Shown here: one piece after another, positions 237-53,903 of the stretch
How the letters are laid out: every line of letters starts with the position of its first letter
Position numbering within the stretch: the stretch's first letter is position 1
IMG/VR virus record: IMGVR_UViG_3300037722_000853
Location: 1-53,903 of that record
Length of the DNA: 53,903 nt
Strand: one strand, 5' to 3'
Origin: a virus
Taxonomy: Duplodnaviria > Caudoviricetes
Notes under the pieces: generated by a model
Told to the model about the DNA's origin: nothing
Database searches by the model: none
What the model saw: the letters and a program-made list of their open reading frames with translations, nothing else
Position numbers and translations under genes: made by a program

Positions 237-387
237 AGTTCCTCGCTTGCGCCTCGCAGCGCACCAGGTAACGGCCGTAGCTCATTAATTCCAGCTTGTG
301 ACCAAAACCACTGTCGGGGCAGTGCAGCACCAGGACTAAGCCCAGCTTCGTTAGCACGTGATTGAGACTGGCCAGCGAAACGATCAT
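226..387 (-). CDS. 53-aa hypothetical protein, present only in allele A
   Basis: MIVSLASLNHVLTKLGLVLVLHCPDSGFGHKLELMSYGRYLVRCEAQARNYEL; ATGA overlap with upstream stop; overlaps the next start. Confidence 0.6.
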   Translation of the reverse strand: MIVSLASLNHVLTKLGLVLVLHCPDSGFGHKLELMSYGRYLVRCEAQARNYEL

Positions 388-785
388 TTGTTCAGCAGCT
401 CCTTAGCCCGCTCGCGCACGGCCGCCCGCTCAGCCTCGCCAGCTGCCTGCCCGCCCAGAGCAATCAGCGCCTGGATGGTTTCGGCCGCCTGCACCTGGTC
501 GGCAAAGCTGAGCTCTTTGGGCACGGCCGTCTCCAGCTCCGTTTGCGCGCGAACTTCAGCGACCGCCTCCGGCTCGTCGAGCATAGCGTCGAGTATCTCG
601 GCGTCAGTTGGTGGAGTAGCCTCTCCAACCTTTGCGCCCTCTGCGTCCTTTGCGGTTAACAATTCCGCCAGGTGCGCCTCAACGTCGCTCTTGAGGATAC
701 GGCCGTCGGCCCCGCTGCCCACCACATCGGCCAGGTCAAGTCCGTGTTCGGCCGCCAGTGCAACGGCCGCCTCAGTTGCGTTCAT
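384..785 (-). CDS. E3-binding (peripheral subunit-binding) domain protein, allele A
   Basis: ATEAAVALAAEHGLDLADVVGSGADGRILKSDV fits the PSBD/E3-binding pattern. Confidence 0.8.
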   Translation of the reverse strand: MNATEAAVALAAEHGLDLADVVGSGADGRILKSDVEAHLAELLTAKDAEGAKVGEATPPTDAEILDAMLDEPEAVAEVRAQTELETAVPKELSFADQVQAAETIQALIALGGQAAGEAERAAVRERAKELLNK

Positions 786-796
786 CAGCTCGCTCC

Positions 797-1780
797 TTAC
801 GTGATCAGCTGCACCGCCACACCGCTCAAGTCAGCGCCGGTGATGGCATTCATATTGCCGAAGAGTACACCCCGGTCATTGGCGTCCAACTTGGTCACGT
901 TGTGTAACATGCAATCCTTCAGCAGAATCGCCCGCGGCTCACCCATCGCCGGAATCACAAAGGCGCTGGCCATATCGTTGGCGGTACTGTTGTTGGTGAA
1001 GATGCAGTCGATAAACGTGTTGTCGCGGTCGATGCCCGTGGCGTCGGCAATTTCCACAAAGGCGGCGCCGGTGTTGCCAGCCCGCATTCTGAAGATGCAG
1101 TCGCGGAAAACGTTGCGGTGGGCCTCGCCATCAAACAGCAGCCCCACCATGCCGGTGGCCGCGTCGATGGTGTCCACACCAACGGTGCAGCGCACGAAGG
1201 TGTTTTCCTCCGCGCCGTCCAGCTTCAGGCTGGCCCCGCCATCGATGGCCTGCGTCGCGTGGCCGCCCCCGGCAAAATGCACGTTCTCAAAATAGTTACG
1301 GCCGCCGGTAACGCTCACATTGATGAGGCTGGTGGCGTCGTCTACGCCCTGGAAGATGTAGAAATTCTGGAAGATGCAGCCGCTGGCGCTAATCGTCAGC
1401 AGCGGCGAGGCCCCGGTCAGCGTCGAGAGCTGGAAAATGCGCGCCCGCTGTGCCGTCTCGGTTGGCGCAGCGATGCCGATCAGGTGCGTGTAATTTTTGG
1501 CCCAATCCAGCACCGCCGTCAACGTCAGGCCGCTGCTGCCCGCCACGTAAACTACCGTGTCGTGCTGGTTGGCCGTGCAGGCCGCATAAGCCGCCGCCAG
1601 CGTAGCAAACGGATAATTGGGGTCTTCGCCCTGGTTGTCATCGTCAGCATTGGCATGGCTCGGATTGAGGTAAAAAACCTTACCGGCCGTATTGGTCAGC
1701 TTGGGAAAAACCTGCGTCTCCGGGAAGCCCAACACGCCATTGCTGCCTTCCAGGAAACCAATTGGTAAATAAGGATTCAT
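797..1780 (-). CDS. Right-handed beta-helix (pectin lyase-like) virion protein
   Basis: PFATLAAAY start motif, repeated N.F.NC.F/DCIF rungs; GGAGG RBS before ATG 1780. Confidence 0.7.
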   Translation of the reverse strand: MNPYLPIGFLEGSNGVLGFPETQVFPKLTNTAGKVFYLNPSHANADDDNQGEDPNYPFATLAAAYAACTANQHDTVVYVAGSSGLTLTAVLDWAKNYTHLIGIAAPTETAQRARIFQLSTLTGASPLLTISASGCIFQNFYIFQGVDDATSLINVSVTGGRNYFENVHFAGGGHATQAIDGGASLKLDGAEENTFVRCTVGVDTIDAATGMVGLLFDGEAHRNVFRDCIFRMRAGNTGAAFVEIADATGIDRDNTFIDCIFTNNSTANDMASAFVIPAMGEPRAILLKDCMLHNVTKLDANDRGVLFGNMNAITGADLSGVAVQLIT

Positions 1781-1781
1781 C

Positions 1782-2051
1782 CTACACCTCCTCCCGCTGC
1801 CAGCCCGGATTAGTGGCCACCACCGTGGCGGCCGTGCCGTACGCTTCCAGGAAGGCTTCGGCCCGCTCCAGCTGCGCATAGGGCCAGCTTTGCGGATTGG
1901 CGGCGCGTTCCTTGATGATCGTTTCGGCTTTTTTCACCGTCATGTCCTGGTAGCCCGCCCGCAGCAGCGCCTCCATCTCCGGCGTCTTGGGCTTAATCGG
2001 CTTGATGTGGCTGGTATCCACATTGGCGCTGTTTCTTTTAGTCGTTGCCAT
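1782..2051 (-). CDS. Hypothetical head-region protein
   Basis: AGGAG RBS; in operon after the capsid gene. Confidence 0.7.
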   Translation of the reverse strand: MATTKRNSANVDTSHIKPIKPKTPEMEALLRAGYQDMTVKKAETIIKERAANPQSWPYAQLERAEAFLEAYGTAATVVATNPGWQREEV

Positions 2052-2134: not shown

Positions 2135-3223
2135 CTAAGCCGTCGTGCCCGAGCTGTAGTAAATTCCGCGATAATCAGTTACACCCACATAGGTGGCGTC
2201 GTCCCAACCGCCGATAATATCCTCGACAAAATACTCAATGTCGCCGGTCTCGGCCGAACCCATCAAAAACGCGCTGGGTGCGCTGCCGCTGATCATCTCA
2301 ATATTACTGGCCTTCATGTAGGTAAACGGTCCCACCACGCCACGCAGCCGGGCCACGGTAATGGTGGGAATGCTCGACGGGTCGGCCACCAGGTACCAGG
2401 GCACATCAGCACCAGAGGTAGCGATGTACGGGTCCACCTTCACACTGGCCACCCAGTCCTTCAGCACGTTGCTGTTGGGCCCGCCAAATGAGATGATGTC
2501 ATTCAGCACCGTCGCTGCCTGAATCCGCAGAATCGGTGGAATGACCAGATGAACCGTGCGCACGTCGATTTTGTTGCCGTCGGCATCGGTGCGCTGCATC
2601 ATGGCGTTCAGGCCCACGGCCAAATTCGCCACCGTCAAACGGCCGGTCCCGGCAAACAGTGCCCCCAGGGCCACCAGCGCCGCCTGGGTGGTGGCGTTGT
2701 CATACAGGTCAGACACAAACTCGTCCTCAAAGCGACCGGCCGCCAGCGCCATGCGCTGCGGCGTCTCCTGGATTTTGCCCAGGTCGTCGTTAAGGATGGC
2801 TCGCCAGCTCACATCAAACTGGCGGCTGTACTCTTCCACGCCATACTGCACCAGCGACGGTGTGACTTTGGTCGCTTTGGCCTCCGCCTTTTCGCGCCGT
2901 TTGCGCAGCGTGCCCGGCTCGCCCATGCGGAACCGCTTCACGTCGCGGAAATCGGGCACCTCATCCGGCCGGGTGTAGTCGCGCCAGTCGCCCATCTGGT
3001 AGGCATAGTCGCTGTAAAACGCCCGGTCCAGCGCGTCGGCAAAATAGTCGGCAAAATGCGCCGTGGTCATCGCCTCGCTAAACTGACGGCCGTTCATGTC
3101 GCGCCATCTGCGCTGCAACTCGCGCAGCGCCTCGACGCGCCGGTCCAGCTCCGCGCCTTCAATCAAATCGCTGTCCTGTTCACAGAGGGCCAGCTCCTCC
3201 ATCCATCGAATCACTTGATACAT
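2135..3223 (-). CDS. Major capsid protein (HK97 fold, Mu gpT-like)
   Basis: VPDFR, SWRAILNDDLGKI, LVIPP and terminal DYRGIY motifs; strong RBS; position. Confidence 0.88.
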   Translation of the reverse strand: MYQVIRWMEELALCEQDSDLIEGAELDRRVEALRELQRRWRDMNGRQFSEAMTTAHFADYFADALDRAFYSDYAYQMGDWRDYTRPDEVPDFRDVKRFRMGEPGTLRKRREKAEAKATKVTPSLVQYGVEEYSRQFDVSWRAILNDDLGKIQETPQRMALAAGRFEDEFVSDLYDNATTQAALVALGALFAGTGRLTVANLAVGLNAMMQRTDADGNKIDVRTVHLVIPPILRIQAATVLNDIISFGGPNSNVLKDWVASVKVDPYIATSGADVPWYLVADPSSIPTITVARLRGVVGPFTYMKASNIEMISGSAPSAFLMGSAETGDIEYFVEDIIGGWDDATYVGVTDYRGIYYSSGTTA

Positions 3224-4302: not shown

Positions 4303-5658
4303 TTAAGCGGCCGCTTTCTCGCGCCGCGCCGGGGTATTCAAATACTTCGCATTAACGGCCGCTTTCCGCTTATTCACCTCTTCCAGGCCCACCTCCTGCA
4401 CGGCCGCACCGCCGCCGCTGCCAGCAGGCACCTTGCCGCTGCCGGTGATGGCTTTGATGTAGCCAATCTCACTGGTTACGGCCGTTTTCAGCTCGTACTC
4501 ATTCAGCCACGCCTGCTCACGCATCCGGGCTTTGCTGGCGTCTGGCAGGTGGGCGGCATTCAAGATGTCACCCACGGCCGTCTCGCTCAAAGGGGCAGCG
4601 GTCGCCGGGGTTTCGGGACTATCCTCACCTTCCTGCAACACAGCCTCTTCCAGCTCCTGTTCCGCCACAGCCTCCTTGGGCTTCTTTTTCGTTTCAGTCG
4701 GCATATCATCCTCCGCTTCGGCGAGGCGGAGGGCACGCCCACCCGCCCCATGTTGAGTTACCCAATCTACGGCCGCTACCTCAGTAATGGCCGCCACTTT
4801 ACGACCCTTACGGCCGTTTAATTCATAAGTCCCCTCGGCCAGGTTACCTTTGGCCAGGATGCTGCAATGCAGCCCGTCCAGGATGCCCAGCTCGGCCCGG
4901 TTGCGGATGCTCTCGGCAAAGACGGGATCAAAAACACCGACGCGGGCAATGGGCGCGCCGGTCTCAGTGAAGCCGCGCATCTCCAGCACCTGACTCACCT
5001 CCGTGCGCACGGATTTCTCATCCGGCCGGTGATTAGTCGCATACATTTTGGCCCCGACAAATGTCTCGGCGCATTTTTTCAGCATGTCGCGTGGGTAGTA
5101 ATTGTTATCCCGGCTGTTCCCCCACCCCGGTTCAATCACGGCAATGTCAATCTTCAACGCCTTGCCGTTGCCGCCCTCCTCCACCAGCTTGACCACGTTG
5201 CCGGTACCGGCCTCGGCAAGCTCCTGCACGTCGCCAGCTTCGGCCTCGGAGCTTGTCGCAGCGGCTTGCCCCGAGCTTGCCGAGGCGGGTGCAAAAATGT
5301 AGGTATGGATGACCTTCTGCCACTCCTCCTCATCGGCGAAATCAAAGCCGTCGGCCGTTTCCTCGTAGGTCACGGCCCAGCAGTCGCCCTTATGCTCGAC
5401 GATGAGAGCGTTACCCAGCAGCGGATGCTCCAGGAAGATGTCCCTCACCCACATGTAGCCATAAGGCGAATCCTCCATATCGACGATGTCAGATTTCACC
5501 CGGAAACGGGCATCGAAGGCGCGGCGCACCTGGTGCAGGTAATCACCCAGACTGCGGAAAATTTCACTCAGTTGGTTCGCGTTCGCCTGCGTTGGCCCCG
5601 CCAACGCAGCCGTCGGCGAGACGGCCGTTTTCCTGGTCTTTCCGTTCATCTTGCTCAT
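4303..5658 (-). CDS. Prohead protease/scaffold protein
   Basis: IEPGWGNS..NYY, YATNH, SI, VDWVT..GAGG protease motifs; acidic scaffold tail. Confidence 0.8.
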   Translation of the reverse strand: MSKMNGKTRKTAVSPTAALAGPTQANANQLSEIFRSLGDYLHQVRRAFDARFRVKSDIVDMEDSPYGYMWVRDIFLEHPLLGNALIVEHKGDCWAVTYEETADGFDFADEEEWQKVIHTYIFAPASASSGQAAATSSEAEAGDVQELAEAGTGNVVKLVEEGGNGKALKIDIAVIEPGWGNSRDNNYYPRDMLKKCAETFVGAKMYATNHRPDEKSVRTEVSQVLEMRGFTETGAPIARVGVFDPVFAESIRNRAELGILDGLHCSILAKGNLAEGTYELNGRKGRKVAAITEVAAVDWVTQHGAGGRALRLAEAEDDMPTETKKKPKEAVAEQELEEAVLQEGEDSPETPATAAPLSETAVGDILNAAHLPDASKARMREQAWLNEYELKTAVTSEIGYIKAITGSGKVPAGSGGGAAVQEVGLEEVNKRKAAVNAKYLNTPARREKAAA

Positions 5659-5672
5659 GGGCAAAACTCCAT

Positions 5673-5718
5673 AAAAACAAAAAAGGCCAGTGACGATCCC
5701 GAGGATCGTCACTGGCCT
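5673..5718 (-). terminator. Intrinsic terminator directly upstream of the protease gene
   Basis: 16-bp stem AGGCCAGTGACGATCC/GGATCGTCACTGGCCT followed by TTTTTGTTTTT. Confidence 0.85.
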
Positions 5719-12543: not shown

Positions 12544-12580
12544 CATTAACCGTTAACCATTTGCAATTAACCATTAACCA
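12544..12580. repeat. TTAACCA heptamer array, copy 2
   Basis: Encodes the methyltransferase C-terminus MVNG and its stop. Confidence 0.85.
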
Positions 12581-43091: not shown

Positions 43092-43094
43092 GGT

Positions 43095-43304
43095 TTATTC
43101 ATTCCTCACTATCTCCATCGACTCGATGCCGTACCGGTCTAAATACTGAGCCACAGACCGCAGGATAGATAAAAAATCCACCGTCTCCACCACCACAATA
43201 GGCGATGGCAGGGTAATGCTGGATAAAATGTGCGTATCGTTGTCATAATCACCCTCCCGGTGCGTACTGCTATCTTTCACGACCTCGTAATGAAAAGAAC
43301 TCAT
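43095..43304 (-). CDS. Hypothetical protein
   Basis: ATGA overlap. Confidence 0.55.
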   Translation of the reverse strand: MSSFHYEVVKDSSTHREGDYDNDTHILSSITLPSPIVVVETVDFLSILRSVAQYLDRYGIESMEIVRNE

Positions 43305-44238: not shown

Positions 44239-45299
44239 TAGCTGTTTGCTGTGTACTCCACCTCGATGCCCAGCGCGTAAACCACATCATTCAGGGTATC
44301 GTTAGCATGGGTCGCATCGCGGGTGATGCGCACAAATAACATATCGCCGGCGGCCACCGGCACGGCCGTAGACAGCGTACTCACCGTCACCAGTGGCGTT
44401 CCAGGAGCAGCCGTGGCTGCGGCATAATCGGCCGTGCTGTCAATTTCCGCCGCCGTCAATGCGCTCTCGGTCACCGCCCGGCCAATGGTGCGGATGCGCA
44501 GGCGGGCGTTGCCTGTTTTGTCACAAATCCACCACAGCTTCACCGTCAGGTTGCCGCTGTTGTAATCGGCCGGCACCCGGAAACTGCCATAGATTTCACG
44601 CACGGCCGCATCAGCCAGGTTCCAGGAAGGCCAGCCAAATGCCGAAAGCACGTCGGCCCCCAACGTACCCGTGCTAAACAGCGCCCCGGCACTCAGCCAC
44701 AGCCGCCGCGTCCGGTCAACAACCCCGGCAAACTCCCGCCGGTTAGTCAGGGCGCTCACCACCCCGCCGGTGCTGATCTGGTACTGGGCCAGCGGCACCA
44801 TAAACAGCGTGGCTGTATCCACATCCAGTGTCGGTGCCGTCGGCGATCCCGCCTCCGTGCCCTGCAAAATCGCCAGGCGGCAGGTGTAGGGTGGCAGGCT
44901 GCTCAGGCCATCGTAATCCGTCAGGCTGGTGGGGAACACCAGCGCATTGCCGCTGGCAATCCCGGCCGTGCGCGCCACGGCCGTGTTGTTCTCCACCACC
45001 ACCACCACATCGATGCGCGGGTTGGCGCTGGGGCTGGCCGGGCTGAATGTTACGGCCGCGTCAGCCTTCAGCAGGTGACCGTTGCAAATCCCCCAACCCG
45101 TATTTACCTGGATGTCGCTGCCGCTGGGGTTGGTCACCGCCAGCTCGTTCAGCACGTACTCAAACGGCCCCTGGGCGGCCGCGTTGTCGCGCGTGAATAA
45201 AATTTTGTACAGCTCGGCCCACTGGTCGGCGCTGTACGGCCCGCTGTCCAGGTAGCCACTATTTTGATGCTCCGGCTGCGGCCGGCTAATTTGCGTCAT
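44238..45299 (-). CDS. Baseplate upper/tail fibre-like protein
   Basis: IQVNTGWG..NG, NPRIDVVV, PTAPTL..PLAQ; follows Dit. Confidence 0.7.
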   Translation of the reverse strand: MTQISRPQPEHQNSGYLDSGPYSADQWAELYKILFTRDNAAAQGPFEYVLNELAVTNPSGSDIQVNTGWGICNGHLLKADAAVTFSPASPSANPRIDVVVVVENNTAVARTAGIASGNALVFPTSLTDYDGLSSLPPYTCRLAILQGTEAGSPTAPTLDVDTATLFMVPLAQYQISTGGVVSALTNRREFAGVVDRTRRLWLSAGALFSTGTLGADVLSAFGWPSWNLADAAVREIYGSFRVPADYNSGNLTVKLWWICDKTGNARLRIRTIGRAVTESALTAAEIDSTADYAAATAAPGTPLVTVSTLSTAVPVAAGDMLFVRITRDATHANDTLNDVVYALGIEVEYTANS

Positions 45300-45313
45300 T
45301 GTCAATCCTCCGT

Positions 45314-46510
45314 CTAAATGCCCACATAAATATTCCTCCACACCAGCCGCGCCGCACTCACCCCCACCAGGCCGCCGCTAAAGGCAATCTGAATCTGGTT
45401 CACCCGATTGGGCGCCACCGGCGGCGGCTCGATGCCGAATAGGGCCAGGTCGCCGCTGACGTAGGGCATCAGGTTCACCCCAGCGCCGTTACTCACTGTC
45501 AGGTCCAGCGTATTGATAATCACCGTCTCCCCGCTGGCCGCATCATAATCCAGCACAATCTGCCGGCCGGTCCCTAAATGAGTCACCGAAGGATCGCTGG
45601 CCGGGCCATCGACATACACCACCGGCCGCGCCCGCCGCGTGCCCCAATAGGTAATATCCACCGTTTCACCCACCGCCCCGGCCACAAACGCCCAACGCCC
45701 GTTGCCTGTCGTCCGGCCGAACCAGGCCCCAGACCCATCAAACACCAGGTCGCCTACATTGTCAGGAATCACCCAGGTCTGACTCTGCTCCGCGCCATAC
45801 CAAAACGGATCATGAGCCACAAAACGCAGCGCCTCGCGGTAGCCCTGCGGGTAAAACGTGCCCGGCCCAGGGCCGGTATCAAACTGCGGCCCCTGCTCCA
45901 GCAGGCAAAAAATGTCTCGGAACGCTCGCTTGCGTGTGTAGCGCCAGGCCCCGGCCGTGGTTGTCGCCCCGGCATAGGCCGCCGCCAGGATGACGGTGAA
46001 ATCATTCGGCACGCTGCCCACCGTATAATCCACCCCCTCAATGGTGATGCGGCCGCCCGCCTCCAGGCCGCCCTGGTGCAGGAAACGGCCGCTGGCACTC
46101 GTCGCCGTCGTGCCGCCGTTGCTCACCACCAGGTCGCTGCCCCGCTCAACCTTGCCGCCCGGCAGCCACTTGCGATACACCAGCGGGTACACAATGCCCT
46201 CAAAGGATCGTGACGGCCGTAACAAATCCAACAGCCAGTTGCGCCGGTCCCACAGGGTCGTGCGGTGGGCCAGCTGCTCGGCAATCACAATCTGGAAGGT
46301 GCGTGTATCCCAACGCATGTCCAGCGGCGTCTCCCCATCCTGGTACGGGCCACGCTGGGTAATAAAATGCAGCGGTGCCATACCCTGGTTGCGCGCCTCA
46401 CGCAGCTTGCGCGGGTTCAGGCCGAAGAGGTTCAGCAGCGAATACGGCCGGTATGTCCCGCCGCCGTTGGGCACTAAAATCTGGTCGCCTTCAGTCAGTC
46501 CGTCGATCAT
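45314..46510 (-). CDS. Distal tail protein (Dit) with inserted domain
   Basis: Directly after tape measure; RGPYQDG, FVAHDPFWY, ARPVVYVDGP. Confidence 0.75.
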   Translation of the reverse strand: MIDGLTEGDQILVPNGGGTYRPYSLLNLFGLNPRKLREARNQGMAPLHFITQRGPYQDGETPLDMRWDTRTFQIVIAEQLAHRTTLWDRRNWLLDLLRPSRSFEGIVYPLVYRKWLPGGKVERGSDLVVSNGGTTATSASGRFLHQGGLEAGGRITIEGVDYTVGSVPNDFTVILAAAYAGATTTAGAWRYTRKRAFRDIFCLLEQGPQFDTGPGPGTFYPQGYREALRFVAHDPFWYGAEQSQTWVIPDNVGDLVFDGSGAWFGRTTGNGRWAFVAGAVGETVDITYWGTRRARPVVYVDGPASDPSVTHLGTGRQIVLDYDAASGETVIINTLDLTVSNGAGVNLMPYVSGDLALFGIEPPPVAPNRVNQIQIAFSGGLVGVSAARLVWRNIYVGI

Positions 46511-49326
46511 CGGCTCGCACTCTCCATAAAGGCAAATTCCAGCGCCAGGCCGCCCGGCTGGGTTGTGCTCTGGGTTGTCAGGTTAAACTGCCGGTTGTCC
46601 TGGTTGATGTTTGTCGCGCTGCTGCCACCCACCCCCGGCGGAGCAATAGACGAGACGCTGGCCATCATGTCTGACATTGGCGGCAAATCAAACCCGACGC
46701 GCAAGCGGGGCAGCTCCACCTGGCTAAGATGCCGCATCGCCTCACTGATGTAATTGAGCGAGTGGTACAGCGGCGGCGGGCTATCACCCTTCATCCACTC
46801 CGGCACCTCCACGTTCTGCAGCGCGGCCGTCACGTCATCAATCCAGCCCTTCAGGACGCTGAAGGCATCAGATATATAGCCCAACGAGCGCTGCAAATCC
46901 GCCAGCGCCCCATCCACAAAACCCTGGATGATCGGCTGCACCTTGTCTTTGATGAACTCCCACACGGCCGTCAGTACCGGCAAAATCTTTTCATCAAACA
47001 GCCGCCACGCCTCCTGCAGCGCTGGCTGCAGCACGTTTTGCCAGATGCCGGCAAACACCGTCAGCGCCAGGCCAAACACCGTATCCAAAAATTCCTGAAT
47101 CGATTTCAGCAGCGGAAAAACACTTTCGTTCAAAAATTCCCAAACTATCTCCAGCGCCGGTTGCAGCGTGTTCTGCCAGATGTCGCTCAGTTTCTCGGTG
47201 CCTTCGGCCAGCTTCACCGCCAGCCAGTCGCGCACCGTCTCAAAAATCGGGATCACATTGTCCTGAATAAATGCCCACACCGTTTCCAGCGCCGGTTGCA
47301 GCGTGCCCGTCCAAAAACTCACCAGCGTCTCCACCGCCACCGGAATATGCTCAATCAGCCAGCTTACCAGCGTGCCCAGCAGCGGGATGAGCGTCTCGGC
47401 CATAAACTGACCCACGGCCGCCAGCGCCGGGGCCAGGTACTCATTCCACATCCGCGTCAAAAACTCAATCGCCGGCGGAATCACCTCCTGCAGCCAGCTC
47501 CACAACCCGGCCAGCGCCGGTTGCAGTTTCGTTTCCCACTGCTCCACCAGCGAATTGATCACCGGCAGCAAATAATTGTTGAAATAATCCGTGGCAATCT
47601 GGATGGCCAGCGGCAGCGCCAGCTGCAACCATTCGCCAAACTGAGCCAGCACCGGCAAAATGTTTTCCTGGATGAAGGCCCGGGCGTTCTCAAAGGCGGG
47701 CAGCAGCGTGCCCTCCCAGAAGCCCACGGCCGTTTCAATCCCGCCTGGCAAATCGTTAATGAAAAAGTTCACGATGCCTTCAAAAATTGGCGGCAGCTCC
47801 TCGCTGAGGAAGGTCCCCAGACGGCCGAACATCGCCTCAATCTGCGGCCCGTGCTCTTCGATAAACCCGGCAAAACCCTGCACCATTTCGGTGAGAACGG
47901 GCAGGAATTTTTCGCCGATGGCTATCTTGAGCGTTTCGACCGTGCCCCTCATGGCCTCTAGTTGACCATTGTAGGTGGCCGTTCGAGCCGCCATCTGCTC
48001 CTGAAGCGTAGCCGCCTCGGCTGTGGCGGCCGTCATCTCCTCGTACCCTTCTGTGCCCTCCTCCAGGAGACTGATGAGCGCGTTTTTGCCATAGCTGCCA
48101 GCGAGTGTTTGTATATACTCGTTACGCTCGGCCTCCGTGAGCTGCTTGGTTGCCGTTGTTGCCTCACCGGTGATGCTCTCTAGCTGAGCGATTTCGGCAT
48201 TGGCGGCCGCCTGCTGCGTGATGTATTTCTCCAGTTGTTTGTCAGAAAGAACACTAATGCCCGCGCTGTGCTTATACAGTGCGTCGGTGGCCTGCTGGTA
48301 GGCACGCTGCGCCAGGTCGAGTTGGTGGTTTTGCTCGGCCGTGCGGCCGCCAACAACTACAGTCACCTCAGAGACGCCATAGAGCGCTTTTTCCATATCG
48401 GCCAGAATGTCTGGCCACTCCCGCATATTGCCCTCGGCGTCGTACAATTCCACCCCCAGCTCGTTAAGCGCGCCGGTTACCTGAGCAGTTGGTCGCGTGA
48501 GATTGGTGAACATCGATTTCAGCTGCGTCCCGGCCTCGGCTCCCTTAATCCCCCGCGTACTCAAAATCGCCAGAAACGCGTTTGTCTGCTCGATGGGGAT
48601 ACCCGCTGCCGCTGCCGATGGGCCAACGTTCCGGTAAGCCTCAGCCAGATCGTTAACTTCGGCATTGCTGGCATCGGCCGTTTGGACAATGTTATTCATG
48701 GCCTGGTTGAGGAATTCGGCTCGCTCGGCCTCCGTCTCCAACTCGCCCCCCCAGGTGGCAAGCACAACGGTCGATAACTCGGCAGCCTGCGCCTGATCTA
48801 GCGTGCTGGCCGCAGCCAAGTCGATGGCCGCCCGTACCGCACCGCCCAGCTCGGCCGTCCCGGCCATATAGCCATTGAGGTCGCCAAACATCTCGCCTGT
48901 ACTCATGCCGCTCTTGGTTAAAATAGTCATCACTTCAGCGGCGTCAGAGGCGGAGGCTCCCACTAGCTGGGTATCCCCCCCCACCTTTATTGCAATATCG
49001 TGGTAATCATCAAAAGCCAGATTGCTTCCCCGAGCAGCCACTTCCAGAATTGCCATCTGCTCCTGGAAGTCGGCGGCCATGCCCACACTCTCGGCCGTCA
49101 CCGCCACCAGCCCCTCGCCCATGCGTACCAGCCCCTCCACCACCAGCTCAATCCCCCGCGCCGCCAGGTTGCCCAACGCTACCGTAGCAATACCGGCCGC
49201 GCCGCTCATGCCGCCCCAGCTTTTCTCAGTACCGCCAATCGCCCGGTCCATGTCGTCCATCTGCGACATGAAGCGACGAAAGCCTTCAACGGCAACCTCC
49301 AGCCCTAGCTCCTCGGTTTCGGCCAT
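46507..49326 (-). CDS. Tape measure protein
   Basis: TP901-type core (GIKGAEAGTQLK) and 11-residue W/F repeats. Confidence 0.93.
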   Translation of the reverse strand: MAETEELGLEVAVEGFRRFMSQMDDMDRAIGGTEKSWGGMSGAAGIATVALGNLAARGIELVVEGLVRMGEGLVAVTAESVGMAADFQEQMAILEVAARGSNLAFDDYHDIAIKVGGDTQLVGASASDAAEVMTILTKSGMSTGEMFGDLNGYMAGTAELGGAVRAAIDLAAASTLDQAQAAELSTVVLATWGGELETEAERAEFLNQAMNNIVQTADASNAEVNDLAEAYRNVGPSAAAAGIPIEQTNAFLAILSTRGIKGAEAGTQLKSMFTNLTRPTAQVTGALNELGVELYDAEGNMREWPDILADMEKALYGVSEVTVVVGGRTAEQNHQLDLAQRAYQQATDALYKHSAGISVLSDKQLEKYITQQAAANAEIAQLESITGEATTATKQLTEAERNEYIQTLAGSYGKNALISLLEEGTEGYEEMTAATAEAATLQEQMAARTATYNGQLEAMRGTVETLKIAIGEKFLPVLTEMVQGFAGFIEEHGPQIEAMFGRLGTFLSEELPPIFEGIVNFFINDLPGGIETAVGFWEGTLLPAFENARAFIQENILPVLAQFGEWLQLALPLAIQIATDYFNNYLLPVINSLVEQWETKLQPALAGLWSWLQEVIPPAIEFLTRMWNEYLAPALAAVGQFMAETLIPLLGTLVSWLIEHIPVAVETLVSFWTGTLQPALETVWAFIQDNVIPIFETVRDWLAVKLAEGTEKLSDIWQNTLQPALEIVWEFLNESVFPLLKSIQEFLDTVFGLALTVFAGIWQNVLQPALQEAWRLFDEKILPVLTAVWEFIKDKVQPIIQGFVDGALADLQRSLGYISDAFSVLKGWIDDVTAALQNVEVPEWMKGDSPPPLYHSLNYISEAMRHLSQVELPRLRVGFDLPPMSDMMASVSSIAPPGVGGSSATNINQDNRQFNLTTQSTTQPGGLALEFAFMESASR

Positions 49327-49335
49327 CGGCTCCCC

Positions 49336-49899
49336 TTAGCCCTCGCCCTCTGGCTGCGCAGGTGTGGATACGGCCGTATGGCCATTAGCCTGAATTGCCT
49401 TCAACTGCGCCTCCAGCTCGGCAATGCGTGCCGCCTGACCATTGGCCAGCTGCTTCGTTAGTTCGGCAATCGCCTCACTGCCGGGAGCTGGCTCCGCAAC
49501 GGCCGTTTTCTTCTCCGGGAAACTGATCGCCATCACCCGGCCGATCAGCTCGCCGCGCTCCTGCTGCGTGGTAATCGTGCGGATCCAGTTGGCCCGGCGC
49601 AGGTGCGGCTTGTCGGCGGCCGTATCAGCGCTGCCAGCGCCCCCCAACAGTTCCATCAGTTCATTAGCCTTATCCGGTGGATTGGTCACTACCCCCCACC
49701 CGGCACAGTAGGTGAATAGTTTGCCCGTCGCCGCCAGCGCCTGCACCTGCTGCGCTCCTTGCAGCTGTAGAATCCGCTCTGGCTGGCGAATCAACGCCAT
49801 ATCGCCGAATTCCAGCATCAAATCCTGTAGAATCGTTTCCTGTACCGCCTGGAGATGCAGCGTCACGCCGCAGTTGAGGATCATCACATCGTTATTCAT
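49336..49899 (-). CDS. Putative tail assembly chaperone
   Basis: Immediately before tape measure. Confidence 0.5.
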   Translation of the reverse strand: MNNDVMILNCGVTLHLQAVQETILQDLMLEFGDMALIRQPERILQLQGAQQVQALAATGKLFTYCAGWGVVTNPPDKANELMELLGGAGSADTAADKPHLRRANWIRTITTQQERGELIGRVMAISFPEKKTAVAEPAPGSEAIAELTKQLANGQAARIAELEAQLKAIQANGHTAVSTPAQPEGEG

Positions 49900-49940
49900 G
49901 GCTGCTATCGGCCTCCGCGCCCGGCAAAAAACCGGGCATT

Positions 49941-50014
49941 AAACAAAAAGAGGCCATCAGCCTGCTGCAACGCTTCGCTTATGCTTCACGTTCGCGCGCA
50001 AACCAATGGCCTCT
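49941..50014 (-). terminator. Terminator-like stem with large loop
   Basis: AGAGGCCAT/ATGGCCTCT then TTTTGTTT. Confidence 0.6.
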
Positions 50015-50024
50015 CAGGGCTTCT
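50007..50024 (-). promoter_or_regulatory. AGAAGCCCT-GAG-AGGCCA motif, copy 3
   Basis: Overlaps the 5' arm of the stem, as in copy 1. Confidence 0.65.
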
Positions 50025-50044
50025 CTTTATGTCGCGTTGTTAAT

Positions 50045-50104
50045 CGTGAAACGTGAGGCGTGAAACGTGATTCTTCTTCACGTTTCACGCTTCACGCCTC
50101 ACGC
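50045..50104. repeat. CGTGAAA heptamer array with inverted arm, copy 1
   Basis: Four CGTGA units followed by four TCACG units. Confidence 0.85.
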
Positions 50105-50105
50105 C

Positions 50106-50747
50106 CTATTTCATCCTGCTCATCAACCAGCCCAACCGCCGCTCAATCAAAAAGAACGCCACCTCCGCGCTCTGCTCCGGGCCGGTGAGCCTGCCGAACC
50201 GCTCCCAGCTGTACCCACCACTCCGGGCCGCCTGCCGGTCGCGGTAAACCGGTGCGTACTCTGCCGGCGCCCCCGGCACCTTCCAGGCCAGCACCGGCTT
50301 ATCCAGCCACAGCACCCGGAAAGCGGCCGTGGCCTCGTCGATGCCCCGCTGGGTAACGGTGGACAGGTAAAAGACCAGCTCAACCACCGCCTGTAAATCA
50401 AGCGGGTCACCCAACACCCCGGCGCGCAGCCGCCCGGCCGGGTCACTCCGGCTAATCCCCGCCTCCTCCAGCTCGCGTAAATCCACCGATTCAGCGCCGC
50501 TTAGGATGGTCACGGCCGGGGTCACCAGCTCCAGCTGCTCCCGGCCCAGCTGGAGCCAAAACGTCGTCAGCTCAACCTGGTACGCCGGATCGTTCCACAG
50601 TGGCTCCTCTTCCTCGATGCCACCCCATACCTGCACCGTGCGTGTCGGCGGCTCGGGCATCGGCCGTCTGGCCAACAAATTGTCAATGTGCTGGCGGTCA
50701 ATCCGGCCGATTCCCAGCCCGATCCCCGCCTGTGTGGTGTAAATCAT
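50106..50747 (-). CDS. Tail-region hypothetical protein (chaperone-like)
   Basis: Between tail tube candidate and tape measure. Confidence 0.55.
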   Translation of the reverse strand: MIYTTQAGIGLGIGRIDRQHIDNLLARRPMPEPPTRTVQVWGGIEEEEPLWNDPAYQVELTTFWLQLGREQLELVTPAVTILSGAESVDLRELEEAGISRSDPAGRLRAGVLGDPLDLQAVVELVFYLSTVTQRGIDEATAAFRVLWLDKPVLAWKVPGAPAEYAPVYRDRQAARSGGYSWERFGRLTGPEQSAEVAFFLIERRLGWLMSRMK

Positions 50748-50750
50748 CTA

Positions 50751-50801
50751 CGTGAAACGTGAAACGTGAAACGTGAAGAAGTTCACGTTTCACGTTTCAC
50801 G
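50751..50801. repeat. CGTGAAA heptamer array with inverted arm, copy 2
   Basis: (CGTGAAA)3 CGTGAAG then (TTCACG)3. Confidence 0.85.
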
Positions 50802-50809
50802 CATCATTC

Positions 50810-52246
50810 TTAGTTAATCAACGCCGTAATCGGATCATCGGCCGCAGCACCACCCACCACCACCGCCCGGTTTTCATCCACCACGGCAATGGCCCGCAGC
50901 AGCTGCGCCGGGTTGGCCGTAATCAGGCGCACCCAATAACCATCGGCGCCGCCCTCAACATTGCGCCACACCCGCGTATCGGTGCCATCGTTGGCCACCA
51001 GGTAATACACATCCCCCGGCGCGGCCATGATGTCGGCCGCGCTCGGTGTGGCCATCATATCATCCAGCGCCGACTGCTGCGTCCAGCTCTCGCCGCCGTC
51101 GCTCGTTTCCCACAGCTCGCCGTCATCGTTGAGGATCAGCACGTGGTCCTCATCCTCCACCCACAGGCCAATGAGGGCGTCAGCCGCCGACGGCCCGGTT
51201 ACGGCCGCCCACGTCTCGCCGCCATTTTCACTCTTCAGCAGCGCATTAGCTGCGCCACAGGCCCAGATCACCTGGTGGTTATTGCGGTCAATCTGGATGC
51301 GGTTCAAATTCTGCGTGGTCACATTCCCGGCGCTCAGCGTCTCCCAGGTACGGCCGCCGTCATAGCTGGCCCAGATATAGCCGTTGGCGCCGCAGACCAC
51401 AATAAAGGTCTGGTCTACGCCGTCCACCTGCGCCGGCGCATTGGCGGCCCACTCGCTGTAAGTCACCTCTACCCGGCTGGTGCCCCGATCATCGCTGCGC
51501 AGCACCGCGCCCTCGCCGCCGGAAACGATGAGGACAAAATCACCCAGCCCCAGCACGGCCGTGGCCCCGGCCGTTGTCCATTCGGTCAGCTCTACGGCCG
51601 TCCACTGGTCATTGTCGCCGCCAAATTTATTCACATACAGGTACGGCGACCCGGCCGCCACCAGCGTGCTCACCGCATACAGCAGCGCCCCCTCTTCGGG
51701 GTCAATGTCCTCACCGCGAGCCACCGCCACGTCCACCAAAGACAACGCCTGGGTAATCGCCTCGCTGGTCTCCAGCGTCACCCGGTAGATGTCAATTTCA
51801 TCCAGCCCCACAAACGGCAGCGTCACCATGCCCTCTTCCTCGCCTTCCCAGGTCGAGGCGGGTGTGGTCCGGCCGCTGGCCTTACACCACACCTTGCGGA
51901 TGATTTCCGTCCAGGCATCGGGTGCATCCCGGTCGCGGCCTTCCACGTGCAGCCGTTTGTCAATGTGGTAGAAAAAGCGCTTCAGCTCAGACTTTTTGCG
52001 GCTGGCCTGCACGTCCTTCATCATCAGGTCAAAACTCACCGTGCCCGGCGCTTCTAGCAAAATCGAATCCCGCTCGATGCCGCCGCGCGGGTTCTGCCGC
52101 GTGGTCACGCTGGCCCCGCCCAGCTCGTCCTGGCTCTCACCCAGGCGCATCTGCCGACCGCCCCACTCAAAGCGGCCGAATGTCCCGGCTTTCTTTAGAT
52201 AAACGGTCCCCGCCTGGGTCACCCAGACATTAGTTTTCAGGCTCAT
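50810..52246 (-). CDS. Putative major tail protein fused to a BNR/Asp-box beta-propeller
   Basis: RSDDRGTS, SYDGGRTW, SENGGETW, TSDGGESW; AGGAGG RBS; occupies the tail-tube slot. Confidence 0.6.
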   Translation of the reverse strand: MSLKTNVWVTQAGTVYLKKAGTFGRFEWGGRQMRLGESQDELGGASVTTRQNPRGGIERDSILLEAPGTVSFDLMMKDVQASRKKSELKRFFYHIDKRLHVEGRDRDAPDAWTEIIRKVWCKASGRTTPASTWEGEEEGMVTLPFVGLDEIDIYRVTLETSEAITQALSLVDVAVARGEDIDPEEGALLYAVSTLVAAGSPYLYVNKFGGDNDQWTAVELTEWTTAGATAVLGLGDFVLIVSGGEGAVLRSDDRGTSRVEVTYSEWAANAPAQVDGVDQTFIVVCGANGYIWASYDGGRTWETLSAGNVTTQNLNRIQIDRNNHQVIWACGAANALLKSENGGETWAAVTGPSAADALIGLWVEDEDHVLILNDDGELWETSDGGESWTQQSALDDMMATPSAADIMAAPGDVYYLVANDGTDTRVWRNVEGGADGYWVRLITANPAQLLRAIAVVDENRAVVVGGAAADDPITALIN

Positions 52247-52520
52247 TGTCGCCTCCTGTGTTAGGTTCAGATTCAACGGCCGCCAACGCCGCCAGATGGC
52301 TTTCTACATCCGCCTTGGTGATACGGCCGTCCACGCCGCTGCCGGCAACGCCGGCCAGGTCAAGCTCGTGTTCGGCCGCCAGTTTTACGGCCGTATCGGT
52401 GGCATTCGGTTCGGCAGGCTCACCGACCGAACCCCGAGCTTGTCGAGGGGTGGCCTCCTGCGCCGCCAGTTCGCTGGCCAATGTCGGTTTTTTGGCTCGA
52501 TAGCCGATGGGTCGTGGCAT
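52230..52520 (-). CDS. E3-binding domain protein (second gene)
   Basis: NATDTAVKLAAEHELDLAGVAGSGVDGRITKADV. Confidence 0.8.
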   Translation of the reverse strand: MPRPIGYRAKKPTLASELAAQEATPRQARGSVGEPAEPNATDTAVKLAAEHELDLAGVAGSGVDGRITKADVESHLAALAAVESEPNTGGDNEPEN

Positions 52521-52523
52521 GGT

Positions 52524-53033
52524 TCACCTCAATGCGCGCCGGAAAGCCGCTTCCATCACGCGCTCAAATTCAGATTCATACTCTTTAGCGATCTTCGCCT
52601 CAAAATTACGCGGCTCCGTACCCGGGTGCTGCACCGAGCGCGCCGCCACCGTGGGGCCTGGCGCGATCCCTGGTCCCCCGTAGCCCCCGCCCGGCTGTGT
52701 CTTGGCCTCGTACGGCCCGCCGGGGAAAAATAGCGTTGGATTGCCCTCGATGCGATGCGGCCGTGTCCTCAGGGTCACAAAGCCGTAAATCTCCACCGCC
52801 CGGGCATTGCCGCCCGGATGCACCAGCATACTGATGCTGTCCAGGCGGTTGTTGCGACGGCCGAAAAAGCGCGGCTTGTTGGTCCAGTCAGCCACTACCA
52901 GGCCGAACCGCTTCACCAGCTCCTGTTTCACCGGGCCGCTGAGCGTCTGATCAATCTCTCGCCGGATCTCCGAACCCTTATTAAATTTCCGGTGTTCTCG
53001 GTGGGCCGTAAAGCGGATCGAGGGATTGGCCAT
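52524..53033 (-). CDS. HK97 gp10-like neck/tail completion protein
   Basis: TRPHRI...LFF...SVQHPGTEP. Confidence 0.7.
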   Translation of the reverse strand: MANPSIRFTAHREHRKFNKGSEIRREIDQTLSGPVKQELVKRFGLVVADWTNKPRFFGRRNNRLDSISMLVHPGGNARAVEIYGFVTLRTRPHRIEGNPTLFFPGGPYEAKTQPGGGYGGPGIAPGPTVAARSVQHPGTEPRNFEAKIAKEYESEFERVMEAAFRRALR

Positions 53034-53482
53034 CAGGTGCCCTCCCGCTGCCGCCGGTTATCAATAATCCGGGCCGCGTTGCGCTCCGTCAGCGCCAGCT
53101 CGGCCACACCAAAGGCCGGGTGGGCTTTGGCCGTCTCGCCCTGGCACAGCTCAATCTGTCCGGTCCGGATCAGCTCCAGCTGATCACGCAGATATTCGTT
53201 GTACGTCGTGCGCTGCTCCGGGCTCAGCCGCACGGCCGGAATATTAAACATCACCGCCGCGCCCACCATGTTGAGCTCCTTCAGGTACTCGGTGGCCCAG
53301 GCCGCCAGCGTGCAGTCGCACTGCCCGCTGGCCTGCATCGCCGCGTGGATCCGTCCGGCCGATTTCACCAGCAAGGCGTTCAACTCGGCCGTGGCATCCG
53401 CGTCACTGGCCAGGCCGAAATCGTAATACCATTGTGTTTCAAATTCGGCCGCCGTAGCGTAGGCCGTCCCGTCACAACTCAT
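53033..53482 (-). CDS. Head-tail adaptor-like protein
   Basis: YATAAEF start, helical, LELIRTGQIEL (Mu gp36-like ending). Confidence 0.65.
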   Translation of the reverse strand: MSCDGTAYATAAEFETQWYYDFGLASDADATAELNALLVKSAGRIHAAMQASGQCDCTLAAWATEYLKELNMVGAAVMFNIPAVRLSPEQRTTYNEYLRDQLELIRTGQIELCQGETAKAHPAFGVAELALTERNAARIIDNRRQREGT

Positions 53483-53903
53483 CGACTCAGCAGCTCCTTG
53501 GCACGCTCGCGCACGGCCGCCCGCTCAGCCTCGCCAGCCGCCTGCCCGCCCAGGGCAATCAGCTCCTGGATGGTTTCGGCCGCCTGTACCTGGTCGGCAA
53601 AGCTGAGCTCTTCGGGCACGGCCGCCTCCGGCTCGTCGAGCATGGCGTCGAGTATCTCGGCGTCAGTTGGCGGAGTAGCCTCTCCAACCTCTGCGCTCTC
53701 CGCGTCCTCCGCGGTTAAACCTTCCAGCGCCGCCGCCACGTCACCCTTCGTGATACGGCCGTCGGCCCCGGTCCCCACCACGCCGGCCAGGTCAAGCTCG
53801 TGTTCGGCCGCCAGCTGCACGGCCGCCTCAGTTGCGTTCATCGGTTCGCTCCTTACGTGATCAGCTGCACCGCCACACCGCTCAGGTCAGCGCCGGTAAT
53901 GGC
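53247..53903. repeat. Diverged second copy of 1-847
   Basis: 127 bp exact, then substitutions and indels. Confidence 0.95.
53479..53841 (-). CDS. E3-binding domain protein, allele B of 384-785
   Basis: Same protein, 13 aa shorter. Confidence 0.8.
   Translation of the reverse strand: MNATEAAVQLAAEHELDLAGVVGTGADGRITKGDVAAALEGLTAEDAESAEVGEATPPTDAEILDAMLDEPEAAVPEELSFADQVQAAETIQELIALGGQAAGEAERAAVRERAKELLSR

Follow-up and report, generated by a model that had tools for sequence, protein, structure and literature searches.

The palindromic octamer ACGGCCGT is iterated along the window, the whole 53,903-nt stretch of viral DNA analysed here, and the analysis confirmed that this iteration is real. 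We consider it probable that a hyper-abundant palindrome system of an Anaerolineae order has ACGGCCGT as its local dialect, and that the phage acquired this word through a directional DNA process encoded by its hosts.

Distribution of the octamer in the phage genome

The earlier note, working from a manual count, had claimed about 109 copies where roughly 2 were expected. The exact number of sites is 111, the outermost two lying at 271-278 and 53755-53762, and 100 dinucleotide-preserving shuffles produced a mean of 1.59 copies and a maximum of 5, none of them reaching 111. The word ranks first by frequency among all 8-mers of the window, and its density of 2.06 per kb (2,060 per Mb) is about 70 times the expectation. 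Markov models of order 0, 3 and 4 predicted 1.5, 9.3 and 22.5 copies, respectively. The octamer contains nested palindromes (GGCC within CGGCCG within ACGGCCGT), and its 6-mer core is likewise over-represented, with 349 copies versus 38 expected at order 0. The core is found at 6.5 per kb when all flanks are considered and at 4.4 per kb with flanks other than those of ACGGCCGT. Forty-seven of the 111 sites take the form AACGGCCGT and 28 the form AAACGGCCGT. One-letter variants of the word numbered 6-46 copies each at the outer positions and 0-3 at the inner ones, where they are at or below chance; the outer-position bias was also present in two bacterial genomes described below, G002 and G168. 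Sites have a median spacing of 340 bp, and the widest gap (2,387 bp) starts after position 699. No hairpin-like pairing or clustering of the sites was detected (9 gaps shorter than 40 bp versus 8.7 expected). The features of the genome are as follows.

271-53762: array of ACGGCCGT, 111 copies spread along the whole genome
1-14700, minus strand: head/structural module, 25 sites (1.70 per kb)
2135-3223, in the head module: major capsid protein (Pfam)
4303-5712, in the head module: 469-aa protein holding four ACGGCCGT sites
12567-13475, minus strand: beta-class DNA methyltransferase (PF01555), catalytic motif SPPY
14701-36800: early/lysogeny region, 61 sites (2.76 per kb), the densest
16060-17001, minus strand: tyrosine integrase (PF00589, E = 2.7e-6, 27.7 bits versus a cut-off of 27.1)
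36801-53903, minus strand: tail/structural module, 25 sites (1.46 per kb)
40154-40951, in the tail module: Laminin_G_3 protein (Pfam)
40948-42327, in the tail module: Sipho_Gp37-like tail protein (Pfam)
46507-49326, in the tail module: tape measure (Pfam)
50810-52276, in the tail module: BNR/sortilin-repeat protein (Pfam)
1-700, plus strand: end duplicate, a diverged copy of 53247-53903

The presence of the tyrosine integrase implies that the phage, a siphovirus, is temperate and can reside in the host chromosome. A search of the phage for tRNA genes, as hints of an attachment site, found none. The two copies of the end duplicate are identical over the first 127 bases and then differ by scattered mismatches and three indels, and this arrangement indicates that the contig ends join and, therefore, that the genome is circularly permuted. 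In the viral relative L142, the homologues of the genes at 226-387 and 53033-53482 adjoin. A megablast search of a phage database with positions 36000-53903 returned no match.

The frame analysis was based on 79 gene calls made in this analysis, 46 of which include at least one site. The word is read as ACG-GCC-GTn (T-A-V) in 48 cases, as xAC-GGC-CGT ([NDHY]-G-R) in 35 and as xxA-CGG-CCG-Txx (R-P) in nine, while the remaining 19 sites are non-coding or partial. The density is 3.7 per kb in intergenic DNA versus 1.9 per kb in coding DNA. The claims that the sites occupy several frames as well as intergenic DNA, and that they visibly reshape proteins, were both borne out. The tripeptide TAV is present 52 times versus 8.3 expected, its mirror VAT occurs seven times, and the octamer encodes 48 of the 52 TAV. 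When codon order was shuffled, 2.3 copies were obtained versus the 92 observed in coding sequence, and 300 synonymous-codon shuffles that kept every protein intact gave 12.6 +/- 3.3 copies with a maximum of 25; the excess therefore persists under the shuffling test that the earlier note had named as a refutation. Peptides that permit the word are nearly filled with it in two frames (TAV 48/52 and [NDHY]GR 35/43, that is, 81-92%) and less so in frame 2 (9/21, 43%). The concentration of sites in the early/lysogeny region is significant with respect to the rest of the genome (binomial p = 0.0036), and the earlier figure of about 60 sites between 15 and 35 kb agrees with the 59 counted. However, synonymous saturation is equal in early and structural genes (TAV 23/24 versus 25/28; [NDHY]GR 18/22 versus 17/21), which indicates that a greater supply of permissive peptides and of intergenic DNA, rather than a stronger drive, underlies the early excess.

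Viral relatives and bacterial dialects

Twenty-one viral loci share the capsid protein at 55-83% identity, and ACGGCCGT is found in only one of them, L142, which has 33 copies in 21 kb. The other 20, about 207 kb in total, have none. At alignable orthologous positions these 20 relatives never carry the word, the nearest sequence being one mismatch away. Where the phage has T-A-V, five relatives have E-A-I, two have E-A-L, and K-A-I, S-A-I and A-A-I are found in one each; at one of the four sites in the 469-aa protein, T-A-V (written as ACGGCCGTA) stands where octamer-free relatives have E-A-I, E-A-L or K-A-I. As read from these alignments, the word was not ancestral to the phage and its sites were gained by the phage lineage. 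The phage and L142 could be aligned over 15.7 kb with a third-position identity of 53%. Across this alignment 12 of 20 ACGGCCGT sites were retained versus 1,836 of 15,367 8-mers overall (11.9%; Fisher p = 4e-7), i.e., the sites are kept about five times better than other 8-mers. Eight sites are private to the window and nine to L142. Other viral contigs also carry the word: among 117 loci listed, at least 19 have ACGGCCGT at 1 per kb or more. For the related word TCGGCCGA, one marginal locus was rich among 118 listed.

Bacterial genomes were reached through loci recovered in a pattern scan for the word. Five whole genomes contain 5,395-15,492 copies of ACGGCCGT (950-2,100 per Mb) versus 18-209 copies of the reversed control word, and the phage, at 2.06 per kb, matches this bacterial density. 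In a sample of 151 genomes from one Anaerolineae order, 61 carry the word at no less than 1 per kb and 71 at no less than 0.5 per kb; in a sample of the class, the higher of these densities was reached by only three of 301 genomes. ACGGCCGT is thus supported as a HIP-like, genome-wide feature of a Chloroflexota lineage, and the guess in the earlier note of a Chloroflexota host lineage with such a word proved correct. Sister genomes of the same order use other words, TCGGCCGA in 5/151 and TGCCGGCA in 6/151. Two of the three dialect words, ACGGCCGT and TCGGCCGA, keep the same 6-bp core with the flanks swapped, and in the order sample ACGGCCGT and TGCCGGCA never both reach 0.5 per kb in the same genome. 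Samples of 400 kb illustrate the separation: G002 has 673 copies of ACGGCCGT, G168 has 630 of TCGGCCGA and no ACGGCCGT, and G313 has 672 of TGCCGGCA. The sequence CCGGCCGG was considered as a possible fourth dialect and was not adopted; G404, a GC-rich genome, has 2,470 copies versus 1,642 of the control.

Phage-like loci within bacterial genomes carry the dialect of the genome in which they reside. Those in ACGGCCGT genomes have 8-9 (L130, L131) or 10 (L164) copies of that word, and loci with TCGGCCGA have seven (L133, with no ACGGCCGT), five (L138) and three (L163). Together, the results demonstrate that the word is host-wide, that 20 of the 21 phage relatives lack it, that it was created with residue changes, that it saturates permissive peptides, and that it is retained and matched to the resident genome. 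Assignment of a host genus from word profiles was also attempted. The sole match in CGGCCG density was Ca. Hadersleviella (6.4 versus 6.5 per kb in the phage); its flank ratios differ, and the samples of 3-16 kb were too small for an assignment. As a separate observation, the core with other flanks is found at 4.4 per kb in the phage versus 0.68 per kb in G002, a difference that a simple action of the same process as in G002 leaves unexplained.

Candidate enzymes and possible explanations

The earlier note had proposed a link to a CGGCCG methyltransferase, but no tested orthogroup was found to track the word. A C5-methyltransferase (PF00145) was found in three of the five word-rich genomes, the exceptions being G001 and G004, where the word is densest; Vsr (PF03852) was found in one of the five. 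No C5-methyltransferase was found in the phage genome, and the combination of this enzyme with Vsr was not supported as the cause. No cytosine methyltransferase was detected in G004, which has 11,901 sites. The PF01555 enzyme of the phage is probably an N4-cytosine methyltransferase, judging from its motif: SPPY or DPPY presumably predicts the target base, and we take SPPY to indicate N4-cytosine for this enzyme. Close homologues (57-58% identity) are present in only 2 of the 151 order genomes, and it was discarded as a lineage-wide cause. Of the five word-rich genomes, G001 and G005 alone have enzymes of the SPPY type (putatively N4-cytosine), no PF01555 orthogroup is common to all five, and the PF02384 matches are heterogeneous. 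Two further candidates were rejected. A 681-aa split methyltransferase-like gene present in G002 and G004 is found in 124/151 genomes whatever their word and is missing from the word-rich G003, G246, G345, G346, G353, G355 and G356, and a Dam-like D12 orthogroup is found in 116/151 across every dialect. The families PF00145, PF01555 and PF02086 yielded no word-tracking enzyme; recognition specificity is not legible in the sequence of such enzymes, and the genomes are mostly metagenome-assembled, so that the absence of a gene is weak evidence. An apparent deamination signature at the second position of the core, where C-to-T changes were in excess (O/E 1.77 and 2.69), was lost when the comparison was made with an equal-GC sister genome (25 versus 19; 38 versus 30). 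The enzyme pair of Dcm/Vsr-type very-short-patch repair is not general among the word-rich genomes, and the phage lacks it. On present evidence, a classical cytosine methyltransferase working together with Vsr is not the specificity factor.

In the acquisition from the hosts that we favour, the phage lineage would have settled in hosts of the ACGGCCGT dialect and then gained about 111 copies by point substitution, with the core CGGCCG climbing to about nine times its chance level. The octamer as a whole would be written where the protein permits it and at further places that cost amino-acid changes. The force would be a host-encoded, sequence-specific and directional process, such as biased repair or gene conversion at near-cognates, acting on any DNA that replicates in these cells and most easily on a prophage. 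Near-cognates, the depletion of which is expected under a conversion drive, are depleted in G002 with respect to its sister (ratios of 0.29-0.64 at positions 3-4) and inconsistently so in G168. Active conversion is nonetheless something that we only infer, because selection on the phage would yield the same pattern. Such selection, in which a host system would read the word as a functional tag and phages that match the dialect would replicate or persist better, has a modest chance of being the correct explanation. The tag could be a 'self' mark that shields DNA from a defence system, a signal for DNA uptake or recombination, or a site bound by a host nucleoid or replication factor. The 5-fold better retention of sites although third positions are near saturation, the amino-acid changes tolerated even within structural proteins, and the sharply distinct dialects in one order, which resemble an arms race or the switching of a recognition specificity, all speak for it. 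However, no reader protein is known, the uptake sequences known from Neisseria and Haemophilus are non-palindromic, and the density peaks where constraint is lowest (intergenic DNA and early genes) with equal saturation in both modules, as a mutational drive likewise predicts. HIP1-style kilobase periodicity is meaningless in a 54-kb genome, and close pairs show no excess. Selection equally predicts high retention, and Xu et al. 2018 read the HIP1 pattern in this way and argued for selection, while a role in uptake was proposed by Rodriguez-Cruz et al. 2026.

A direct HIP1-type model, where a CGGCCG methyltransferase marks a cytosine and methyl-directed or very-short-patch repair ratchets near-cognates into the word, appears unlikely. 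Although the nested palindromes and outer-position deviations parallel those of HIP1 (Elhai 2015) and the phage encodes a probable N4-cytosine methyltransferase, the distribution of enzymes given above (C5-methyltransferase absent in G001 and G004, Vsr in 1/5, SPPY-type only in G001 and G005, no orthogroup common to the five genomes, phage-enzyme homologues in 2/151) is against it, as is the C-to-T excess that vanishes against the equal-GC sister. It is very improbable that the phage makes the word itself, independently of the host, by means of its own methyltransferase or another gene. The enzyme at 12567-13475 and the 6.5 per kb of CGGCCG with all flanks would fit, but the word is equally dense in bacterial genomes that lack any close homologue of the enzyme (only 2/151 have one) and phage-like loci take whichever dialect the resident genome has, so that this explanation is close to refuted. 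An artefact of composition, codon usage, a repeated protein motif or host DNA miscalled as viral has a negligible probability. The GC content is 60% and GCC, ACG, GGC and CGG are favoured codons, but the protein-preserving shuffles (12.6 versus 92), the use of three frames and intergenic DNA, and the inner one-mismatch variants at or below chance already refute it; the capsid, tape measure, tail and integrase genes and the joining contig ends also stand against miscalled host DNA.

Acquisition through a host-encoded process could be taken further. Tentatively, a programmable process independent of cytosine methylation might write an 8-bp palindrome into all resident DNA, altering proteins, with a specificity that switched between sister genomes (ACGGCCGT, TCGGCCGA, TGCCGGCA); phages would record the host dialect and may also need to match it as a 'self' tag. 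As at least three dialects coexist within the order, and two of these differ in nothing but an exchange of flanks, a comparison of sister genomes should expose the specificity determinant. The word-free phage relatives in other hosts provide a polarised record of site creation, including replacements in structural proteins. The dialect of a viral contig may also predict the host clade among uncultured Anaerolineae, many of which come from wastewater plants.

Comparison with known systems

The DUS of Neisseriaceae and the USS of Pasteurellaceae lack symmetry and are recognised by a competence receptor. They resemble the present system in their density of about 1 per kb, in having in-gene sites that affect peptides and in their lineage dialects around a conserved core, but ACGGCCGT is a perfect palindrome. 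In E. coli Dcm/Vsr, very-short-patch repair pushes near-cognates toward the methylase site, so that the word is over-represented and the deamination product depleted. Both cases could involve a site-specific repair that biases one word; however, the E. coli effect is modest and consists of one base change, whereas here Vsr is found in 1/5 and C5-methyltransferase in 3/5 genomes, and the deamination signal is lost under control.

HIP1 (GCGATCGC) is a GC-rich 8-bp palindrome of cyanobacteria, and its density of about 1-2 per kb is tens of times the expected value (Elhai 2015, Xu 2018). Essentially all work on it has concerned one phylum, which is why its origin, and whether it is under selection, have stayed unsettled for three decades (Xu 2018); methylation-dependent enhancement of transformation has been described, with a proposed role as an uptake sequence (Rodriguez-Cruz et al. 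2026). Set beside the features given for HIPs in Elhai 2015 and Xu 2018, ACGGCCGT is a GC-rich palindrome with the copy density (hundreds to thousands per Mb) and fold excess (15- to 300-fold range) of these elements, phylogenetically coherent (61/151 in the order versus 3/301 in the class), independent of codon usage and peptide motifs, and conserved above background, the latter as measured in one phage pair. As in HIP1, sites occur in all frames and between genes, the palindromes are nested with deviations at the outer positions, and there are palindromic extensions, AAACGGCCGTTT in the Chloroflexota system. The word and the phylum are different, and in the window GCGATCGC does not rank among the top 12 palindromic octamers by frequency. 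According to Elhai (2015), genomes in which HIP1 is frequent always encode enzymes for GATC and CGATCG, whereas no co-occurring enzyme was found for the ACGGCCGT core in the families searched. Full-text literature searches, which do not reach supplementary tables, returned no paper describing a Chloroflexota palindrome system. ACGGCCGT is documented in phages at host density, while the word 'phage' is absent from the main text of Elhai 2015 and Xu 2018. The closest likeness to the dialects is that of the alternate HIPs, where some genomes swap the main word for another GC-rich palindrome of similar density; a matching methyltransferase is given for each alternate word (Elhai 2015). Here, two of the three words share a core and differ by swapped flanks. 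The ACGGCCGT system would thus be a counterpart of HIP1 outside cyanobacteria, with an independent origin in Chloroflexota.

Abundance and coding context of the palindrome in the phage

The octamer ACGGCCGT (core CGGCCG, flanks A..T) was counted at 111 sites spanning positions 271 to 53762, and it is the top-ranking 8-mer of the window by count. Dinucleotide-preserving shuffles of the window contained a mean of 1.59 copies and a maximum of 5, which confirmed the highly iterated palindrome (HIP) of about 110 copies claimed in an earlier note. The Markov expectation rose from 1.5 at order 0 to 22.5 at order 4, and it neared the observed count only at orders 5-6, where the models already include the word's own 6- and 7-mers. 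The enrichment signal is layered, core plus flanks. The core occurs 349 times versus 38 expected at order 0, with flanks A..T in 111 cases, A..C in 46 and G..T in 25, and the variants of ACGGCCGT with one change at the six inner positions are present in just 0-3 copies each. The extended forms AACGGCCGT and AAACGGCCGT make up 47 and 28 of the 111 sites, respectively. CGGCCG with flanks other than A..T is found at 4.4 per kb in the phage versus 0.68 per kb in the bacterial genome G002; only Candidatus Hadersleviella loci resemble this excess, which the same process as in G002 would not simply account for. A second palindrome, TGGCCA, a double-transition relative of CGGCCG, is also enriched: the window has 83 copies, and the count within coding sequence is 77, where protein-preserving shuffles give 42.9 ± 5.0. 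Its copies per 400 kb number 396 in G002 (loci L202-L221) versus 68 in the bacterial genome G168.

The Pfam scan took in 40 proteins, the larger half of the gene calls, and 30 of the 40 had no Pfam family at E <= 0.001.

Phage genes identified by Pfam
2135-3223, major capsid protein
12567-13475, minus strand, PF01555 beta-class DNA methyltransferase
16060-17001, minus strand, tyrosine integrase (just over the cut-off)
24649-25653, plus strand, ParM-like actin (ALP_N, E = 3e-14)
46507-49326, tape measure protein
Sipho_Gp37-like tail protein
RNase T-type exonuclease

The ParM-like actin and the tyrosine integrase in one genome hint that the phage might be a partitioned episome alongside or in place of integration. 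The first ~700 bp of the window repeat 53247-53903 in diverged form: 127 bp are identical, and scattered mismatches and three indels follow. The genes of the window's two ends adjoin each other in L142, its closest viral relative. Therefore, the genome is circularly permuted. It is probably complete at about 53.2 kb, and the terminal copies look as if the assembly of a circular genome had spanned two strain variants. The virus record, which the 53,903-bp window covers in full, is listed as linear and 72% complete.

Reading frames depend on the 79 genes called by a GC3-based greedy caller, one of them added by hand; on these calls, 48 sites are read as ACG-GCC-GTn (T-A-V), 35 as xAC-GGC-CGT ([NDHY]-G-R) and nine as xxA-CGG-CCG-Txx (R-P), and 19 are non-coding or partial. 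The density is 1.9 per kb in genes versus 3.7 per kb outside. The 92 copies in coding sequence compare with 12.6 ± 3.3 (maximum 25) when synonymous codons were shuffled across all genes with the proteins kept, and with 2.3 after codon-order shuffling. Therefore, the test set in the earlier note, loss of the enrichment under codon- or dipeptide-preserving shuffles, does not refute it, and neither are the sites confined to a single frame. The phage proteins are affected by the word, as had also been claimed: the tripeptide TAV occurs 52 times versus 8.3 expected (VAT, 7 times), and each of NGR, DGR, HGR and YGR exceeds its expectation 3- to 4-fold. Where the peptide permits it, the word is used in 48 of 52 TAV, 35 of 43 [NDHY]GR and 9 of 21 cases in the third frame. 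Sites are denser in the early region (14.7-36.8 kb), at 2.76 per kb, than in the structural modules, at 1.46-1.70 (p = 0.0036). Synonymous saturation is equal in both, and the gap in density therefore reflects the number of permissive peptides and the amount of intergenic DNA.

Distribution of the word and its dialects among bacteria

A scan of bacteria, one genome per species, for two ACGGCCGT within 30 bp produced at least 120 loci. Among the matches listed, 45 loci have 1 to 4 ACGGCCGT per kb, and those named to phylum are all Chloroflexota (Ardenticatenaceae, Promineifilaceae, Ca. Leptovillus, Ca. Leptofilum, Ca. Hadersleviella and unnamed Anaerolineae) except L002, a 1.75 kb Gemmatimonadaceae locus with just the two sites behind the match; Streptomyces and other matches listed have 0.25-0.75 per kb. 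Five whole genomes (G001-G005) contain 5,395-15,492 copies (0.95-2.1 per kb) versus 18-209 of the reversed control word, and the density in the phage is 2.06 per kb. Thousands of copies were present in 3 of 301 genomes of an even class sample. Within one Anaerolineae order, 61 of 151 genomes reach at least 1 per kb and 71 at least 0.5 per kb, with a graded tail; these tallies include G327, a genome at 0.13 per kb that is flagged as unpublished and carries no weight in the conclusions. ACGGCCGT is a property of a bacterial lineage, this order, and the proposed HIP-like word of a Chloroflexota host lineage was thus upheld.

Other palindromes, or dialects, were found in the same order. The word TCGGCCGA, with the same core and swapped flanks, reaches at least 0.5 per kb in 5 of the 151 genomes (G168, loci L222-L241; G329; G407; G420; G439), at 3,685-9,442 copies per genome. 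G168 had been sampled as a supposed word-free control, and its 399 kb contain 630 TCGGCCGA and no ACGGCCGT. The control word TGCCGGCA is itself a palindrome and reaches at least 0.5 per kb in six genomes (G313, G269, G330, G366, G418, G433; 3,639-8,850 copies each), none of them rich in ACGGCCGT. There are 672 TGCCGGCA and seven CGGCCG in all in 400 kb of G313 (loci L242-L261), and 673 ACGGCCGT in a 400 kb sample of G002. In a further group of genomes, the A..T and the T..A flanks both occur, at 0.2-0.6 per kb. The GC-rich genome G404 has 2,470 copies of CCGGCCGG versus 1,642 for a control, at most a possible further dialect.

Gain and retention of the word in the phage

Twenty-one viral loci encode a capsid protein 55-83% identical to that of the window, and only the closest, L142, has ACGGCCGT (33 in 21 kb). 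The word is absent from the 20 others, which together span about 207 kb, and 17 of them have 0-7 CGGCCG each. When 24 window sites were placed on aligned orthologues, no ACGGCCGT was found at the alignable positions of these 20 relatives, the closest sequence having one mismatch. The T-A-V site ACGGCCGTA in the 469-aa protein (4303-5712) aligns with E-A-I in five relatives, E-A-L in two, and E-A-V, K-A-I, S-A-I, A-A-I, A-A-V, G-A-L and T-T-A in one each. These alignments indicate that the phage acquired ACGGCCGT.

Three capsid relatives, L153, L154 and L162 (GC 0.65-0.67), have no ACGGCCGT but 11-13 CGCCGGCG and 7-12 CGGCGCCG in 7-11 kb. These counts are several-fold over a rough expectation and may represent another host word.

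The window and L142 align over 15.7 kb, with 71% nucleotide identity and 53% at third positions. Twelve sites are common to both, of 20 in the window and 21 in L142, versus a background retention of 11.9% for all 8-mers and 13.3% for composition-matched ones (Fisher p = 4e-7). A further eight sites occur only in the window and nine only in L142; thus, sites are both created and unusually well kept. HIP1 sites in cyanobacteria are likewise kept above background, as outlined in Xu et al. 2018.

Among the matches listed, viral contigs with at least 1 ACGGCCGT per kb accounted for 19 of 117 loci. Loci of bacterial genomes with homologues of window genes were compared to the dialect of their own genome.

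Words in loci with homologues of window genes
L130 and L131, in the ACGGCCGT genomes G348 and G424: 8 and 9 ACGGCCGT
L164, in G421: 10 ACGGCCGT
L133, in the TCGGCCGA genome G420, homologues of two window genes: 7 TCGGCCGA, no ACGGCCGT
L138, in G168: 5 TCGGCCGA
L163, in G420: 3 TCGGCCGA

All six loci carry the dialect of their genome. As they are few and short, this agreement does not amount to a statistical test, but it suggests that the dialect of the resident genome sets the word in phage-like loci.

Methyltransferase candidates and origin of the word

In the HIP model, as sketched in Elhai 2015, the palindrome is tied to a methyltransferase recognizing its core. The co-occurring CGGCCG methyltransferase that the earlier note had called for did not emerge: of PF00145, Vsr and PF01555 in the five word-rich genomes, and a 681-aa gene and D12 in the 151 order genomes, mostly metagenome-assembled, none tracks the word. 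No C5-methyltransferase was found in the window in any frame. PF00145 is present in three of the five word-rich genomes and was not found in G001 and G004, the two densest; Vsr is present in one. All five have PF01555 enzymes, with no orthogroup shared among them. Within this set, enzymes with the SPPY motif, presumably the mark of N4-cytosine enzymes, are restricted to G001 and G005. Neither PF00145 nor an SPPY enzyme turned up in G004, which leaves this genome with no cytosine methyltransferase detected. The phage methyltransferase has the catalytic motif SPPY, M.MboIIA and M.RsrI come nearest to it among solved structures (E about 5e-9), and close homologues (57-58% identity) occur in two of the 151 genomes, G348 and G424. 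The 681-aa methyltransferase-like gene, present in 124 of the 151 genomes, and a Dam-like D12 enzyme, present in 116, were rejected as the agent because both are spread over all dialects and word-poor genomes. At core position 2, an excess of C-to-T changes, considered as a sign of deamination, vanished when a sister genome with the same GC served as the reference. A methylation model is unsupported, though not refuted, by these genome comparisons, since sequence does not reveal the specificity of an enzyme.

Some of these genes have unusual structures. In the 681-aa protein (L179:25-2070 in G004, and orthologues), which is weakly DUF1156-like, 50-89% identical across the 124 genomes and unrelated to the word, the methyltransferase motifs lie at the two ends, separated by a large insert that has a zinc-ribbon match. 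In G005 (C122:7442-8784; L123, L129), an internal stop interrupts the C5-methyltransferase gene directly upstream of the sole Vsr gene found in the five genomes, and the two look like a decaying methylase-Vsr pair. Two PF01555 methyltransferases, 50% identical to each other, carry a fused Mrr_cat / NA-iREase1 nuclease-like domain (L170 in G003, L177 in G001).

The facts are fitted best by a host-determined, sequence-specific and directional process acting on resident DNA, to which a temperate phage would be exposed as a prophage. The main rival is that phages are selected for matching a functional tag of the host, which would account for the strong retention of sites. HIP1 is reported in Rodriguez-Cruz et al. 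2026 to promote transformation, and a role in uptake is proposed there. Literature searches on the octamer and on HIP with Chloroflexota, with supplementary word tables for other phyla outside their reach, showed no description of this system among the papers listed. The dialects of the order match the 'alternate HIPs' of cyanobacteria, as these are outlined in Elhai 2015.
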